A DNA stretch of 24,000 nt. Source: an uncultured Ureaplasma sp. Its GTDB lineage: Bacteria > Bacillota_I > Bacilli_A > Mycoplasmatales > Mycoplasmoidaceae. The stretch spans positions 1 to 24,000 of the forward strand of contig CALUPI010000033.1 in the NCBI GenBank assembly GCA_944322645.1. Direction: 5' to 3'. A program made the translations under genes and the position numbers. This document shows positions 217 through 20,073 of this stretch, one piece after another. Within the stretch, counting starts at the first letter, position 1. Each line of letters starts with the position of its first letter. The notes under the pieces are model-generated. The model saw nothing but the letters and a program-made list of their open reading frames with translations. It did not search any database and was not told the origin of the DNA.

Positions 217-387
217 ATGTCAAGAACTGTTATTGTTGAAGATAATGATGTTGAAAAAGCATTAAAAAAATTTAAAAGAATTGCTAATGAAACTAAAAAA
301 GATACAAAACGTCATGAATATTATTTAAGACCAGGTCTTCGTAGAAAAGAAAAATCAAAAGAAGCTAGAAAACATAAAATATATTAA
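217..387 (+). CDS. rpsU: 30S ribosomal protein bS21
   Basis: 56-codon ORF MSRTVIVEDNDVEKALKKFKRIANETKKDTKRHEYYLRPGLRRKEKSKEARKHKIY. It has the typical S21 size and basic C-terminus (EYY.RPG.RRKEK). An SD-like GAGGTGGTGA sits at 201-210. The ORF is missing from the supplied track, presumably because of its short length. Confidence 0.93.
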   Translation: MSRTVIVEDNDVEKALKKFKRIANETKKDTKRHEYYLRPGLRRKEKSKEARKHKIY

Positions 388-411
388 TACGGTTAATTCC
401 GTATTTTTTTA
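387..411 (+). terminator. Intrinsic terminator after rpsU
   Basis: Stem ATACGG (387-392) pairs with CCGTAT (399-404) around loop TTAATT, running into a T7 tract (404-410). Confidence 0.7.
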
Positions 412-471
412 TTTTATAAATATATTAGTAAAAAAAATTTTTTAAACATTTATTATTATTGGGTGAAAAAA

Positions 472-2340
472 ATGAAAATAATTAATCAAACTAGTAATAA
501 TGAATGTGGCATTTGTGCTATTAATATGATAATTAATTATTATTATCATTCTGATAGAGACCGAAAATTAGAAATCTATTCATATACTAAAAACATGGAT
601 AAAAATGGAATTAGTATGATAGAAATAGAAAATATATTTCAAAAATTTAATATTAATGCTATTTCATATGAATGTAAGTTTTCTGAAATCTTTAGTATAA
701 ATTCACCATTTATAATGGTAATGAAATATAATGATAATCTTCATTATGTAGTAGGTAAAGTTAAGAATAATAAATTATATATTTATGATCCTATTGGCAA
801 AGTTAAAATTTATACTAAAAATGACAAATTAAATGAATTCTTAGGTTATGTAATATGCACTAGCTATAAAAAACAAAAAATTAAACCTATAAATTTAAAT
901 TTAAAAATTATTAAAAATGTATCAATAACAATGAATATTATTTTTACATTTATTAATACATTTGAATTCATTTTTTCATTATTAATATCATTTATTTTAT
1001 CTAAAATTGTTAATATTAATTTTGAACAAACATTTGAGGAAAGTATATGAAAAATATGTTTTATATATATTGTCATATTACTATTAAGCGAATTATTTAA
1101 TTATCTAAATAAAATTATTAAAAATTTTTATTTTTCAAAAGTATTTCCAGCAAGTATTGATATTTTCTGACAAAAAATTAATAATAAAACATCTTCTTTT
1201 TTTCAAATGTACTCAATACATGAATTATCACAAATTTATATGTATACATATAAAATAATAAATTTTATTTGTATATATACATCTGATATATTTTCAGATA
1301 TGATAGTGCTAATTTTAAGTTTTATTCTTGGAATCATTATTAATCCCCTCAATTTATATTTTTATTTATTATTAATATTAATTAATTTCTTTATTATGTA
1401 TTTAAATATAAAATTAGACAAAAAACTGGTTAATTTTGCACATAAACAAAATCCAATACATGATAAAAAAATACTCAATTTTTTTGAAAACAAAATTAAT
1501 AATATAAATTATCAAACAGACACAAAAATATCAAAAGAAATTCAACTTGAACTTAATAATACTTTATGAAAAACAATTGAAATTCAAAATAAAATAAGTT
1601 TATTAGATTGTATAGATAAAATAATCAATTCTTTAATTCAATTCATATTAATAATTTTAATAATTAAAAATGAAAATGATTTTAGCTTAATTTTTTTAAA
1701 CTTAAATATTGTAAATTTATATAATAAATCATTAAAATCAATTTTAAATTATCTAAATGAGTATTCAAATATTAACTTAATTTTGGATATAGTTAAAAAA
1801 ATATATTCTATTAATGAAAATAATAATTCAAAAATAATACCATTTAAAAAAATAGATAATATTATTATTGGTAATAATAATTATTCAAAAAATATATGTA
1901 TTAATACAAAAGATATTTTAGAAAATCCATTTATTAATAATCTAATAAATTTAAATGAATTTGACTATTCAATTAAAATAAATGGTATTGACATAAATAA
2001 AATCAATAAAAGTTTATTTATAAAAAAAATGTTAATATTAATTACCCCAAAAAAATATAAAAATAATAATATAAGTACATTTTTATCAAACTCTGTTTAT
2101 GAATATTGTTCTCAAATTGATAAGGATTTTAATAGAGAAATAAATTTATTAATAATATTATCAAATTTAATAAATGAAGAAAATAAATTAATCATTTTAA
2201 ATGATAATCTATTAGATATAGATGATGATTTTTTTCAAAAAGAAATTAAAAAAATGTTATTAGAAATTAATAAAAAAAATTTTTTAATAAGTAATTGTAA
2301 TAATAAAAAAATTATTGATATTTATGATAACTTTATCTAA
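472..2340 (+). CDS. Peptidase-C39-domain ABC exporter (PCAT, bacteriocin-processing/export type) with a degenerate nucleotide-binding domain
   Basis: Track ORFs 463-1050, 1207-1569 and 1783-2340 are all in the same frame. They are separated only by TGA codons, and I saw no TAA/TAG on reading through, giving one ORF of about 622-625 codons. The N-terminus INQTSNNECGICAINMIINYY ... NLHYVVG ... YIYDPIG matches the C39 Gln/Cys/His/Asp pattern (Q-x5-C-G, HxVV, DP). The middle holds several hydrophobic TM segments. The C-terminus aligns to an ABC NBD (IKINGIDINKI..., KLIILNDNLLDIDDD), but the Walker A, signature, Walker B Glu and H-loop are all substituted. The start is either ATG 472 (SD-like GGGTGA at 461-466) or GTG 463. 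Confidence 0.8.
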
Positions 2341-2689
2341 TCAATGAAAAAAAATTATTATTATCGTATCAATTATTATTTTTTTAATAATATTTTGCAT
2401 TTTATTTATTGTACTTTTCAAATTTGATAAATATTATGAATCGTATTTTCAAAATTATAATGGAACTGAATATTTAATTGTTAATAAACAAACATATCAT
2501 TTTTTAAATCTTCAAGGACAAATTAGTATAAAATATAATGATCTAAATTATTCTATAAATTATCAATTTATAAATAAATATGATGATATGTATGTATTTA
2601 TTACAGATTTTAATAAACAAATACAAAATAATAATATATGTTATATACTTGTTAAAAATATAACAATATTCGATTTATTGAAAGGATAA
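2324..2689 (+). CDS. Small single-pass membrane protein (121 aa); candidate accessory or immunity protein of the peptide-export locus
   Basis: ATG 2324 overlaps the PCAT stop by 17 nt. Translation: MITLSNQ-W-KKIIIIVSIIIFLIIFCILFIVLFKFDKYYESYFQNYNGTEYLIVNKQ...ITIFDLLKG*. An in-frame TGA at 2345-2347 hides it from the standard-code track. It has one strong N-terminal TM helix and then a polar domain of about 90 aa. The stop at 2687-2689 lies 1 nt before the next ATG. Confidence 0.55.
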
Positions 2690-2690
2690 T

Positions 2691-2951
2691 ATGAAAATAT
2701 TAAACAATGAAAAAAAAGTTAAAATTTATGGATCTGGTGGATACCCTTGAAACACTTCACTATTTACAGCTATGAGTTGTCAAGCGGTTAATAGTATATT
2801 AGGCTTAGTAAACCAAATTATATACAATAATAATAGTAATCCAGCTTTTAAAACTTCCAAAAGTTATGATGATACATCATCAAGAATGTATATAAGGGCA
2901 AGTAAAAATGCTTTATCATCAACATTATCATATGGGAGTCCGTATTTTTAA
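2691..2951 (+). CDS. Double-glycine-leader peptide A (86 aa precursor); candidate bacteriocin or secreted peptide
   Basis: MKILNNEKKVKIYGSGG YPWNTSLFTAMSCQAVNSILGLVNQIIYNNNSNPAFKTSKSYDDTSSRMYIRASKNALSSTLSYGSPYF*. The leader aligns without gaps to that of peptide B. There is an in-frame TGA (Trp20) at 2748-2750, and the stop at 2949-2951 overlaps the next ATG (TAATG). Confidence 0.6.
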
Positions 2952-3169
2952 TGAAACAATTAAATAATAATATTAAACAAATAAAAGCTGGTGGAATTTT
3001 TGGATATGGAGGTTGAGGTTTTGCTACAATGGCTAACGTATTAATAAATGGTGCGGTTGGGATAGTTAGTAATTCATTGAATATTGCAAATTCTGCTAAA
3101 CATTCTTCCAATCAACCAAATTATGTATATAAACCTACATTATCAACAAAATTTAATTTATTTAATTAA
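2951..3169 (+). CDS. Double-glycine-leader peptide B (72 aa precursor); candidate bacteriocin or secreted peptide
   Basis: MKQLNNNIKQIKAGG IFGYGGWGFATMANVLINGAVGIVSNSLNIANSAKHSSNQPNYVYKPTLSTKFNLFN*. It has a 15-aa leader ending in GG with Leu at -12 and Met at -15, then a Gly-rich hydrophobic core. There is an in-frame TGA (Trp22) at 3014-3016. It is translationally coupled to peptide A. Confidence 0.65.
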
Positions 3170-7517: not shown

Positions 7518-8610
7518 ATGAGAGAAAAAAATAAATTAAATTGATCAATCATTCTATTATTTTTATTTATTACAACTATAATTATGTTTTATAGTTTTAT
7601 ATCAGCATGATATTTAATAATAATGATTCCTATCATTATATATTTTATAATCACAAAAATAAATAAAAAAATTTGAATTTACTTAATCTTAACAATAATA
7701 ATTGTATGTATATTTTATATAATCCAAAATTATTGGAAATCCAATATTAATATATTTAACAATTATTTATCTAATACAAATTTTTATTCAGGAAGAGATT
7801 GACTATTAAATAAAATAAACCAGCTTTATAAAAATGAATATTCTAATGAATTTATTAAATTATTAATGTTTAATGAAAAAAATTATTATGGAAATTTTTA
7901 TCAAAATGTTAGCAATTTAGGAATTACTTATCTATTTGTAATTTCAGGAATGCATATAAATATAATACTATTACCATTACGTTATATATTTAGAAAAAAA
8001 AATCCATATATTTTATTATTTTTCAATAATTTTTTGTTTTTTATATGGCTATGTTTTACAATATTCAATTAGTCTTCTTAGGATTTTATTGACAAATATT
8101 ATTAGACTATTGAGTAAAAATAAAATCAACAATATTAGTGCAACTATTATTAGTGGTTGAATATTAATAATTTTATTTAATACAATTTGTTATTCATCTA
8201 GTTTTATAATGTCCTATCTAACCACACTATTAATAATTTGAATGAACAAAATTATAAAAAATAGAATTATAATGTTTTTTGCAATTAATGTTTTTTGTTT
8301 TTTATTAACAATACCTATAATATTAAAAATAAATCCAAAAATTAATATTTTTATTTTTTTCTATAATTTATTATTTTGCAACTTAATTTCATTTATATAT
8401 ATCTTTTTATTTATATTTATGTTTATTCCACAATTTGCAATTATTAATGAAAAAATAATCATTTTTCTTCAAGATTTAATAACTTTTTCTAATATTAATT
8501 CTATTTTTATTCATATTTCTAAATTTTTTTCATGATCAAATAGTATATATTTTTCAGCATTTTTAGGGATTTTTTTAATTATTTTGCATAAAAATGAAAA
8601 AAAATTTTAA
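7518..8610 (+). pseudogene. comEC: ComEC/Rec2-family competence membrane channel, interrupted by a +1 frame change in a T-rich tract (pseudogene, sequencing error or slippage-dependent)
   Basis: The frame-0 part runs 7518-8072 (MREKNKLN-W-SIILLF...NLGITYLFVISGMHINIIL..., the ComEC SGxH motif) and ends at TAG 8070-8072. The homologous continuation is in frame +1 from about 8041 to TAA 8608-8610 (...LYGYVLQYSISLLRILLTNII..., equivalent to G.s.S.lRa..m of ComEC). The frames overlap around the T5-G-T6 tract at 8031-8042. Confidence 0.65.
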
Positions 8611-14773: not shown

Positions 14774-16516
14774 ATGTTTTCAAATAAAAATATTCAATAC
14801 TTTAAATCTAATAAATATCAAAAAGTTTCCTTAAATTTATTAAAGGATTTTTTGCGTGAAAGTATAATTTTTGTTGTATTTTGATTTTTAAATGGATTAA
14901 TACCAATTCTAATATGTTTAATATCAGCAAGCATTAATCAATATGGAGCATATTTTGTTTTAGGTATTGGTTATATTACTGCCTTTCAATTAGCATATGT
15001 ACAAATTGGTTGAGTTGTATCAATTGCAATATTATATGTAATTAAAAAGATGGCCACCGATCCAATTAATAGTGCAAATTATAAAAAATTATATTTTAAT
15101 GCATTTATAACTATGTCAATAATTGCATTTGGATTAATACCATTATTTTTTGGTCCATCATTTATTTATAATTATTTTGCTAATAATCATGTAAATACAA
15201 TTATTTCTCAAGAAATTGCTAAAAACTATATTTACGGACTATTGATATATATTGGTGTAAACGTCATAATAAGTTTTATTACTATGAATATCCATACTAA
15301 GCATGGTTTAAAATTATCACTACCTATTCTAATCGGTTCCAATGTTATAATAATTGGATTGTGTGCAATACTAACATTACTTGTTCAATATGATGATATT
15401 CAAACACATGCATTAATGATAGGTATGTCAATTAGTATTGGTTCATTGATATCATTAATATTATTAATTATAATTTCATGATTTTTTGGTGATATAAGAG
15501 ACTTATTTCAAAAATTTGACTCACCAACATTTAAATTTTTATTTAAATCAATTTTTAAACAAGCTGCATCTGTATTAAGTATTCAAGTAATTAAAGGAAT
15601 AGTATTAATAGGTTTAGGAATTGCTATTAGTGCAACTATGAATATGACATCACCTATGGGGTATCAATTATCTAGAGTAGTTTGATATAATTATCTATAC
15701 TTAATCCCATTTTTAGGTTATGGTCTAGGTGATGCAATGATGTTTTATGGAATGAGAAAAAATATTACTACATCATACAAAAATTTACATTGAAATGTAT
15801 CTATATTGATAACAATGACAATAATCCTTCAAATTGGGATTGCAATAGGTTTATACTTTACTATAGAGCCGTTATGTTCTTATTATGTAAGATATAAAGA
15901 AATTGATTGTTCATATATTAATTTAAATAATGTGGATTTAATCTATACTATGAACTTTATTGCTAATAAACTTAATTTAACCCAAGCACAATTAGATCGT
16001 ATTATTAATTTAATTAATTGATGTAATAAACATCCAACTATTGGTGAACCAATATTAAATGTAATGAAAATAGCAATTGTACAAATTTTATCAAATAATA
16101 ATATGACTGGTTCAGGGTTAAGTAGTTATTTAGTTTTAAACAATAAAGCTTATATTTATATATCAATATATTCAGTCTGCTATTCTTCGGCAATTTTAAT
16201 TAATAATATTACATTATCATCAAAGCATCGTTATTCAAATACCTTTGAAACCATTTTTCTAATTGTTATGCAGGCAATTGTTATTAGTTCTGTTGTAGCT
16301 ATGGGAGTAGAATTACAATCAACAAGTAAAACTTTTCCATACTTAGATGCGTGATCATTTCCATTAGCAGTTGCTGGTGCTGGAGCATTTATTATGTATA
16401 TTGTAATGTATCTAATAAATGTAAATAAAATTAAAAAGCAAGACAAAAACAAAACTGGAATTTATAAAATAAATACTTGAAATCAAAATCCAAAAGATAT
16501 AGTGATTGATATCTAA
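14774..16516 (+). CDS. Polytopic membrane transporter, MATE/MOP-superfamily-like
   Basis: ATG 14774 and track ORFs 15050, 15806 and 16064 share one frame, joined through seven TGA codons, to TAA 16514-16516 (580 aa). It has at least 12 predicted hydrophobic helices in two halves. Family assignment rests on topology and size resemblance to mollicute MATE annotations only. Confidence 0.6.
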
Positions 16517-18558: not shown

Positions 18559-20073
18559 TTACTTTTTAAAAAAATTATGAACATTTAATTTTTCAAAAAG
18601 TTTTAATAATTCGGAATTAATATTATTTTTATTAAGATATATTAATCAACGAAAGACAAGATTATCAGGTTCATTTTTATTATATATAGGAGTTACCATA
18701 CCATCAATTCATTCATCAGATTGAATAACACCTCAATATATCCCTAATAATTGACATGATTCATTAATTACCATTGAACCAGATGATCCATGTCCTAAAT
18801 TAATACCAGAAAATAAATAATTGTTTTCTCAATCATATGGATAATAGTAATTTCGATTATCAAATCAAAGATTAATTTCATTTCTAACATTGTATATATT
18901 TTTTTTAATGATATTAGAAGATATGGTTCTACAATTATATGTAACATATGAAGAATTATTTGAATATGAAATTCCAGGATAACCTGCTACTGTATAAAAT
19001 TTACTTAAATTAGATTCAAAACTTTGAAATAAAAAGTTTTTCTCAATTTCATCTTTATTTTCATCATATCCTTCATCAATTAATTCATTTAAGAATTTTA
19101 CTTTTTGTATATATGTTCTATTAATTATATTTTCATTAATTGTGGTTGGGACACAAAAAATATTAAATATAGAATTAACAATATATTTATTTACAAAATT
19201 ATATTTTGAAGTATTAATATCATTTGGATTTAATTGAAATTCTATTATACCCATATCATTTGCTGCTGATATATCATTTTGATTATATTTATAAGAGTTA
19301 TGAACAATATATTGATTATCAATATATAATGATATATTTTTATTATTTTTACTATTTGTGTATATTAAGTTAGCAATATATGGATTATTATTAGGTATAT
19401 TTTTACCTTCAAAAATTGCCCCTAATGGAATTATTCTTTTATAATATTCATTAAAATTTAATCAATATTTATTTAATCCATCCTTATAATTGATAGGTAT
19501 TTTATTTAATTCATTATATTCTGTACTATTTTTGTTACCATTTGGTTGACTTAAATATGTATTTAAAATACCTGAGATTGGATTACTATTATATGGTATA
19601 AAAAAGTTTATTTGCTCATAGTTATTTAAATTATAAATAACACTATAACCAATATTTAATACATGAATATTTGTTGCAAAATAATATGTATTATAATTAT
19701 CTTCTATATTGTAATCAAATAGTCATGTAGTTCCTGAAGATATGTTATAAAGTGCAGCATCATTTTGATTATTTAATAAATAGTAAAAAATATTTCAATA
19801 GTTAGTATTTTGAGGATTATCAATTATATTTTTTAATAATTCTGAATAATAATTAGGATTATTATCTATATAAAATAATAAGGATAATGAATTGTTATTA
19901 ATGTATAATTCTTGTTCATTATTAACATCTTGATATAAAACATCATCATTTATAATGTGGTTTTTATTATTTTGACTCACAATAATAGAAGTTGCAATTA
20001 TTGATCCTGTTATTGCACCTATTCCTAATATTAATCCACAAATATAAATATATTTTTTTGTTGTCTTATGCAT
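18559..20073 (-). CDS. Membrane-anchored DUF31-family putative serine peptidase (mycoplasma S1-like peptidase)
   Basis: It has an N-terminal signal anchor MHKTTKKYIYICGLILGIGAITGSIIATSIIV, then YYFATNIHVL (the conserved ATN.HV His motif of DUF31) and INLGHGSSGSMV (GxSGS catalytic-Ser-like motif). Track ORFs 19795-20073 and 18865-19254 are in one frame, joined by TGA codons, to TAA 18561-18559 (504 aa). Confidence 0.72.

Follow-up and report, generated by a model that had tools for sequence, protein, structure and literature searches.

The DNA analysed here (the window) is a stretch of 24,000 nucleotides with about 20% G+C from an uncultured Ureaplasma sp. (contig CALUPI010000033.1). Near its beginning it encodes for a protein of PCAT type (peptidase-containing ATP-binding cassette transporter), hereafter the query, in which a C39 peptidase and an exporter-type membrane domain are followed by a C-terminal domain resembling the nucleotide-binding domain (NBD) of ATP-binding cassette (ABC) proteins. 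An earlier note on this DNA had proposed that the protease and membrane domains are kept, while every ATPase motif of the NBD is substituted. Positions of motifs were taken from MAFFT and hhalign, which were in agreement, and residue numbers are those of the query protein (P0001). The features of the gene are the following:

472..2340, forward strand: PCAT-type gene, 622 codons plus TAA under genetic code 4, start supported by homologues
472..876, forward strand: C39 cysteine peptidase domain (residues 1-135), Pfam PF03412 with E 2.8e-21
487-489, 505-507, 742-744 and 787-789, forward strand: C39 catalytic residues Q6, C12, H91 and D106, aligned to ComA
919..1815, forward strand: exporter-type transmembrane domain (residues ~150-448, six long helices), from the ComA 8hf4 profile, the helices of the AlphaFold2 (AF2) model and Foldseek matches to PCAT1 and HlyB
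1834..2337, forward strand: predicted pseudo-NBD, residues ~455-622 at the C-terminus, ABC NBD fold in reduced form and free of ATPase motifs, from hhalign, AF2, Foldseek and the ratio of nonsynonymous to synonymous substitutions (dN/dS)
1870..1893, forward strand: GNNNYSKN (residues 467-474), beta-1 region upstream of the P-loop position, from MAFFT and hhalign
1903..1926, forward strand: NTKDILEN (residues 478-485), equivalent of Walker A, from MAFFT, hhalign and the AF2 model
2128..2142, forward strand: FNREI (residues 553-557), equivalent of the signature, in place of LSSGQ, from MAFFT and hhalign
2185..2205, forward strand: KLIILND (residues 572-578), Walker B strand, from MAFFT and hhalign
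2299..2301, forward strand: H-loop position, N610 (Asn) where His is expected, within FLISNCNN, SHD to CNN

The genome reads code 4, with TGA coding for Trp (for example at 1048, 1168, 1567 and 2345). Under this code the frame is open from a GTG at 463 or the ATG at 472 to the TAA at 2338-2340 (622-625 codons), and the ATG at 472 (MKIINQ) is the start used in all homologues. The in-frame TGA codons of the transporter gene lie at 1048-1050, 1168-1170 and 1567-1569, two of the three on Trp columns that are invariant among orthologues (W193 and W233). With the standard bacterial code the frame 463..2340 is split into three pieces, all three internal stops being TGA, and 1783..2340 is the table-11 open reading frame (ORF) fragment of 185 aa that lies past the last of them. 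Lists of table-11 ORFs fragment most genes of the window in this way, those for leucyl-tRNA synthetase and the transporter included. An unbroken ORF of about 625 codons, as had been claimed, was thus borne out, with a probability of P = 5e-28 for 622 codons without TAA or TAG at 46% A and 39% T, and with 19-84 TAA/TAG stops in each of the remaining five frames. The closest named relative is Candidatus Ureaplasma intestinipullorum (Mycoplasmoidaceae), a metagenome-assembled genome (MAG) from chicken gut, whose locus is fully syntenic and whose protein is 50% identical.

A HMMER search with an orthologue profile yielded 397 relatives, of which the 98 full-length top matches were surveyed for length and motifs. 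Both properties were bimodal. Two thirds of these proteins (65 of 98) were ~610-730 aa long and carried a GxxGxGK[ST]-like Walker A together with hhhhDE as Walker B; LS[SG]GQ was matched as well by about half of them, and aligned examples showed an H-loop of the SHD type. The other 33 were ~600-640 aa long without Walker A or signature, and aligned examples were without the H-loop His; we refer to these as dead and to the former as intact. In a neighbour-joining tree built on protease and membrane columns only (60 bootstraps, to be read as indicative only as the sequences are very divergent), the dead proteins fell into clade A, which holds the query (19 sequences, monophyletic in 60/60 bootstraps), and clade B (14 sequences, monophyletic in 55/60). 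The two clades were sisters in 0/60 bootstraps, clade B grouping with an intact subgroup, which suggests that the ATPase might have been lost twice independently among related Mollicutes transporters. Clade B includes P0049, P0063 and P0045, with one cluster of 28 members, and its proteins are truncated at the H-loop. Its loci L012 and L015 lie in other genomic contexts, with rplJ-rplL-rpsO upstream and no peptide genes downstream in L012. Two Mycoplasmataceae MAGs encoded for further relatives: a distant C39-bearing protein (L002 3447-4805), 24% identical over residues 1-448, and one that is 34% identical over the protease domain only (L003 6001-6318) and may be a stand-alone or differently fused C39 peptidase.

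The Mbov_0121 family (NF045998) scored best with the query and with every dead or intact relative tested, although none of them reached its 500-bit cut-off: the query reached 121.4 bits over residues 9-579 and intact metagenomic relatives 270-316 bits. Query and family share the lineage, the genetic code and a downstream overlapping gene for a single-pass protein of ~120 aa. The NBD of Mbov_0121 family members is already compact, with an LSSGQ signature, but their ATPase motifs are intact, unlike those of the query. Literature on the Mbov_0121 and MAG1140 family names was limited to passing mentions.

No match to ABC_tran (PF00005) was found in Pfam at E<=10, neither with the whole query protein nor with its 185-aa C-terminal piece, and none of the ABC-ATPase families of NCBIfam was matched by either. 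The dead relatives were not matched by any ABC-ATPase family either, while more than 100 such families recognised the NBD of the intact relatives P0036 and P0025. Homology therefore had to be sought by profile-profile and structural comparison. With hhalign, the C-termini of clade A aligned to the NBDs of intact Mollicutes PCATs with 97.6% probability (E 3.8e-12, 180 columns). The score was 78.7, and 20 column-shuffled controls and one reversed control scored at most 15, which shows that the match is not an effect of composition. An AF2 model of the domain alone, made from dead-clade sequences alone, reached a pLDDT of 81.8 and a pTM of 0.79, and the top 50 Foldseek matches to it were all ABC NBDs (TM 0.5-0.63). 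Among these were the exporter NBDs of TM287/288, HlyB, MsbA, Atm1 and PCAT1; TmrAB and BmrCD were also among the matches. The outline alignment to an ABC NBD that had been drawn by eye thus stood, and of the two checks proposed with it, a PF00005 profile alignment and a structure prediction, the latter gave an NBD fold. To judge from profiles and model, the C-terminal domain is a genuine NBD homologue without ATPase motifs.

The alignments also settled the register of the motifs. Walker A is lost, as had been claimed, but GNNNYSKN is not its site: this register was off by 11 residues, the Gly of GNNNYSKN is not kept among orthologues, and the Lys is part of a conserved KN[IL]CI strand. The real equivalent is NTKDILEN, which holds no Gly and has Glu in place of the Walker Lys, so that the idea of a retained first Gly and Lys had to be given up. 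NTKDILEN was modelled as a P-loop-like strand-loop-helix, followed by the helix FINNLINL and by SIKINGIDI, which resembles 'ydP..G.I.idG'. The signature LSGGQ is likewise absent, but the string QIDKDFN, formerly placed in its position, lies ~5 residues upstream of the true equivalent FNREI. Two other readings agreed with the alignment: ILND for Walker B and the catalytic Glu, where ILLDE has become IILND with N577 at the Walker B Asp and D578 at the catalytic Glu, and the loss of the H-loop His in FLISNCNN, where the aligned position is N610 and varies among orthologues. Searching for the patterns G..G.GK[ST], [LFYIV]S[GS]G[QEK] and hhhhD[EDQ], we found none in the C-terminal 260 residues of the query and the other clade A orthologues; all three were seen in intact relatives, and a few clade B proteins retained a lone Walker-B-like hhhhD[DE] string. 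All strings quoted in the earlier note are present in the DNA. The note had missed the genetic code, the register of Walker A and the downstream cassette with its two candidate substrate peptides. Going by its aligned residues, the query NBD is without Walker A, signature, Walker B Asp-Glu and H-loop His.

Several lines of evidence spoke for selection on this domain. Orthologues at 96-99%, ~50% and 22-40% identity were all full length with the same dead domain, which answers the question, raised before, of whether the degenerate motifs are conserved or a lineage-specific decay. Relative to the ~50% orthologues, identity was 40-48% in the dead domain and 43-52% in the membrane domain, and this parallel was counted in favour of an old and selected dead state. 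In unsaturated pairs (dS 0.3-0.6; Nei-Gojobori, code 4), the dead domain had a dN/dS of 0.18-0.28, compared with 0.17-0.21 in the membrane domain and 0.11-0.16 in the protease. Conservation, measured as the frequency of the top residue within a clade, was highest in clade A in the core beta-strands and the C-terminal strand of the domain (0.69-0.71), with the Walker B beta-strand itself at 0.71. The former Walker A and signature positions were the least conserved of the domain (0.43 and 0.35, respectively), whereas the order was reversed in intact relatives (0.64 and 0.76). Conserved strands with variable former motifs are the pattern expected for a pseudoenzyme domain kept for its fold. Together with the conserved synteny, the orthologues and a dN/dS of ~0.2 uphold the earlier proposal that the gene is under selection, and the dead state is old, conserved and under purifying selection.

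The two other domains were found to be kept, in line with the earlier claim. Peptidase_C39 (PF03412, residues 4-135) was the sole Pfam match on the whole protein, and the Pfam ABC_membrane model gave no match on the query. A profile of eight orthologues aligned to Streptococcus ComA (8hf4) with E 1.7e-8, residues 8-456 against 13-473, which spans the protease and the whole membrane domain. In this alignment Q6, C12, H91 and D106 fall on Q11, C17, H96 and D112 of ComA, which we take to be the catalytic set of the ComA peptidase, and all four are kept in clades A and B as well as in intact relatives. A nearly invariant motif YSxHELSQIY (~246-256) resembles a coupling helix and matches the conserved TGE(I/L) coupling-helix region of ComA. 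The full-length AF2 model had a pLDDT of 60 overall, and its best matches in the PDB (Foldseek) were still full-length PCAT1 and HlyB. The conserved polar residues in the membrane domain of clade A were K178, K194, K217 and S177.

The transporter gene heads a cassette of four genes, followed by a MAG1140-like single-pass protein and two small peptides, which we named pepA and pepB:

2324..2689, forward strand: single-pass membrane protein gene, 121 aa, overlapping the transporter gene, one TGA read as Trp, NF045999 with E 5e-5
2691..2951, forward strand: pepA, 86 aa, variable N-terminus of ~15-17 aa, MKILNNEKKVKIYGSGG, then a conserved core YPWNT...
2951..3169, forward strand: pepB, 72 aa, 15-aa leader MKQLNNNIKQIKAGG, then a Gly-rich hydrophobic core IFGYGGWGFATMANVLINGAVG
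386..405, forward strand: terminator-like hairpin after rpsU, upstream boundary of the cassette (2 such hairpins found, 0.1 expected)

This cassette is kept in 12 loci (L004-L011, L013, L016, L017 and the window). The genomic surroundings are different in L013, and the four genes hence behave as one unit. A scan for sigma-70 promoters was uninformative in the AT-rich window (51 sites, 45.6 expected). The single-pass protein (112-124 aa) directly follows the transporter in all clade A loci, and a gene of the same size and position is also found after the transporter genes of an intact relative (L014) and of a clade B protein (L015). Its match to NCBIfam NF045999 (MAG1140) in the window was below the cut-off of 35 (23.4 bits), and three neighbour homologues, two after clade A genes and one after an intact relative, gave sub-threshold E-values of 8e-5 to 7e-4. 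Orthologues of pepA have 86-95 aa and those of pepB 71-84 aa. A homologue search with pepA returned four clusters only, all inside clade A, and pepB gave a non-significant match only to MPN313. The predicted pepB leader has L at -12 and GG at -2/-1, whereas E(-8)L(-7) is absent; pepB orthologues have L at position 4, and their leaders end in GG, AG, SG, GS or KG. The consensus of PCAT leaders is L(-12)xxxE(-8)L(-7)xxxxG(-2)G(-1) (PMC6959990). Class IIb two-peptide bacteriocins were considered as a model for the pair and rejected as more than an analogy, with no GxxxG seen by eye in the core of pepA or pepB. An 87-aa Pro-rich ORF on the opposite strand (2848..3111, reverse strand) mirrors the Gly-rich coding of the pepA end and pepB and is very likely not a gene.

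Neither an ABC ATPase nor a second PCAT was found in the 24-kb window or adjoining any dead locus examined. Upstream of the window, judged from relatives, lie Tex, Cas1/Cas2 and leucine-rich repeat proteins, and no ABC gene; the locus of the 98% relative is at the end of its contig. On a contig of the Candidatus Ureaplasma intestinipullorum type (L004 1..1772), cas1 and cas2 are found on the far side of tex, upstream of the cassette by a few kb. CRISPR-Cas is unusual in such small Mollicutes genomes.

Canonical PCATs, namely Clostridium thermocellum PCAT1, Streptococcus ComA and TIGR01193 (bacteriocin_ABC), share with the query the order of C39 peptidase, six-helix membrane domain and NBD fold, the catalytic Q/C/H/D, and adjoining genes for small peptides with an N-terminal leader, a candidate one in the query's case, closing in a Gly doublet; they are its best structural and sequence matches. 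In contrast to them, the query is without Walker A, signature, Walker B Asp-Glu and H-loop His, its NBD is ~60 residues shorter, and its candidate leaders are shorter (~15 aa) and fit the consensus in part. Against TIGR01193 it scored 40.8 bits, with a cut-off of 523.85. ABC transporters of HlyB-type type 1 secretion, which carry a C39-like domain (CLD) and are likewise PCAT-derived, resemble the query in that one catalytic module has turned into a conserved pseudo-domain, but as a mirror image: in HlyB the protease is dead and the ATPase live, whereas the query has intact protease residues and a dead ATPase. In the heterodimeric exporters TM287/288, TmrAB and BmrCD, which were top Foldseek hits for the dead domain, an NBD with non-consensus catalytic residues is likewise kept by selection. 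Only one composite site is degenerate there, with Walker A and ATP binding in both NBDs, whereas the query loses every motif. The proton-driven peptide transporters SbmA/SLiPT and the engineered MsbA-MD offer, by analogy, a precedent for an ABC-exporter-like membrane domain that moves peptides or drugs without an NBD. In these the NBD is wholly absent and protonatable residues have been identified, whereas the query keeps the NBD fold and shows no conserved membrane carboxylate.

We read the query, with about even chances of being right, as an ATPase-dead 'pseudo-NBD' PCAT of Mollicutes that processes and releases co-encoded peptides without ATP. The protein would form the usual homodimer, in which the coupling helices would be held by the dead domain acting as a structural cap, and without ATP-driven closure the transporter would be mainly inward-facing. 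In PCAT1 the protease is docked and active and cleaves in the ATP-free inward-facing state (PMC6959990). The C39 domain of the query would cut the short Gly-type leaders of the co-encoded peptides, most convincingly that of pepB. The hydrophobic mature peptides might then leave through the membrane domain without ATP, outward or sideways into the bilayer; for the outward-facing state of PCAT1, exit into the bilayer and/or to the outside has been described (PMC11491471). Irreversibility could come from leader cleavage and from partition of the peptide into the membrane or the outside, and the accessory protein or the membrane potential possibly assists the release. Transport by a membrane domain of ABC type without an NBD is documented for MsbA-MD (PMC8660845) and for SbmA (PMC8442886, PMC13316013). 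Among the three readings offered in the earlier note, a protease and channel that would draw on another source of energy is the most compatible with these data. No conserved carboxylate embedded in the membrane, which could serve proton coupling, was found.

A number of points weigh against this proposal. Peptide cleavage, export and the loss of nucleotide binding are all predicted from sequence, and the AF2 membrane domain is of low confidence. Looking for a proton relay of the dead clade, we found no Asp, Glu or His conserved in the membrane domain of clade A, which leaves proton coupling without sequence support. The leaders fit the canonical L(-12)xxxE(-8)L(-7)xxxxGG only partly, the cleavage register of pepA is ambiguous and inconsistent between orthologues, and no bacteriocin or leader family of Pfam or NCBIfam matches pepA or pepB. 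Finally, the search for a partner ATPase covered the window and the related loci.

Some of these points would also fit a protein that is no longer a transporter but a membrane-anchored C39 protease or a scaffold, the membrane domain and the dead NBD serving only to position the protease; the small proteins would be membrane partners or unrelated, or the protease would act on a non-secretory substrate. The poor leader register of pepA and the lack of leader family matches agree with this alternative, and without ATP the outward-facing state should be rare. Moreover, double-glycine substrates could long not be recognised for the C39-ABC homologues of mycoplasmas, and it has been proposed that these act in something other than export (PMC6609329). 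For JCVI-syn3A 0401, a mycoplasma transporter homologue with a C39 peptidase domain, Breuer et al. speculated on transamidation or import, since mycoplasmas were not known to have double-glycine peptides (PMC6609329). In clade A, however, two candidate peptides are carried where none had been identified for mycoplasma C39-domain proteins (PMC6609329), and they always lie directly downstream, with variable N-termini and conserved cores, in the classic layout of a transporter with its substrates. Purifying selection furthermore acts on the whole membrane domain as strongly as it does on the dead one. We regard a purely non-transporting protein as unlikely, though it deserves to be taken seriously.

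Improbable in our view is that the dead protein pairs with an intact PCAT paralogue into a heterodimer, or borrows an ABC ATPase encoded elsewhere, so that export would still be ATP-driven. Intact relatives are common in the same Mollicutes family, heterodimeric exporters with one degenerate site are well known and are represented by TM287/288, TmrAB and BmrCD among the structural matches, and the conserved coupling-helix motif and NBD core strands fit a domain that still dimerises. Known degenerate exporter subunits, however, keep Walker A and still bind ATP, whereas the query subunit does not keep it. NBDs pair as a head-to-tail sandwich with composite ATP sites, and because of this arrangement neither composite site would work if one subunit is without Walker A, Walker B and signature. 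The cassette moreover moves as a self-contained unit, and neither the window nor the dead loci examined hold a candidate partner. The idea of a pairing with another ABC ATPase, also put forward before, found no support in cis (24-kb window and 12 related loci) and is mechanistically awkward.

A recently inactivated exporter or a decaying pseudogene, the third of the earlier readings, would account for the loss of every ATPase motif and of the Pfam ABC_tran match, but the open frame (P = 5e-28), the full-length dead orthologues down to 22-40% identity, the dN/dS of ~0.2, the conserved structural strands and the conserved synteny all oppose it; the loss is common to a clade whose members are down to ~22-28% identity, and there is a second dead clade. 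This reading is refuted. That the motifs are intact and were mis-registered by eye is refuted as well. The earlier Walker A register was truly wrong by 11 residues, but the correct one gives NTKDILEN, and the C-terminal 260 residues of the query and the other clade A orthologues hold none of the ATPase motif patterns.

Returning to an ATP-independent PCAT, its interest lies in the definition of the group. ABC exporters are defined by ATP-driven alternating access, and degenerate sites are known among them. The query is, as far as its alignments tell, PCAT-derived, yet it fails the test that defines an ATP-binding cassette. In the literature searched we found no published PCAT lineage, conserved and under selection, that has lost every motif for nucleotide binding and hydrolysis but has protease and membrane domain intact. 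It is conceivable, although we put it somewhat below an even chance, that these proteins represent a natural peptide processing and secretion family of the ABC-exporter fold without an ATPase of its own, maybe the first, in which the NBD persists as a pseudo-domain, release is driven by cleavage, partition or membrane potential, and the loss occurred maybe twice in gut Mollicutes. If the peptides are still delivered, such transporters would be a natural experiment on the roles of NBDs besides the use of ATP, would bear on whether small hydrophobic cargo can be moved by cleavage and partition in place of the power stroke, and might mark a route from primary to passive or secondary transporters (compare SbmA). 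The two peptides are also the first candidate substrates for the long-orphan mycoplasma C39-ABC proteins. With four genes in ~2.7 kb the system is small and should be tractable once TGA is recoded to TGG.

Elsewhere in the window, three further loci were recorded. A 580-aa polytopic membrane protein (14774..16516, forward strand) matched no Pfam or NCBIfam family. A 504-aa lipoprotein-like protein (18559..20073, reverse strand) is a homologue of DUF31/MIP-family (Ig-specific) serine endopeptidases, with a Pfam match to PF01732 (E 1.7e-14) and a match below the cut-off to NCBIfam NF045841 (E 1e-8); its neighbours are TrkH and an unannotated gap, with no obvious adjoining MIB partner. A ComEC-like competence gene (PF03772) is split by a frameshift into 7518..8072 and 8089..8610 (forward strand), with an indel near 7986-7994. 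In a relative that is 99.5% identical (L016 7363..8454) the gene is a single ORF of 363 aa, and the sole indel is an additional A within a stretch of poly-A (A9 versus A8), so that the frameshift is either an assembly error or homopolymer phase variation.

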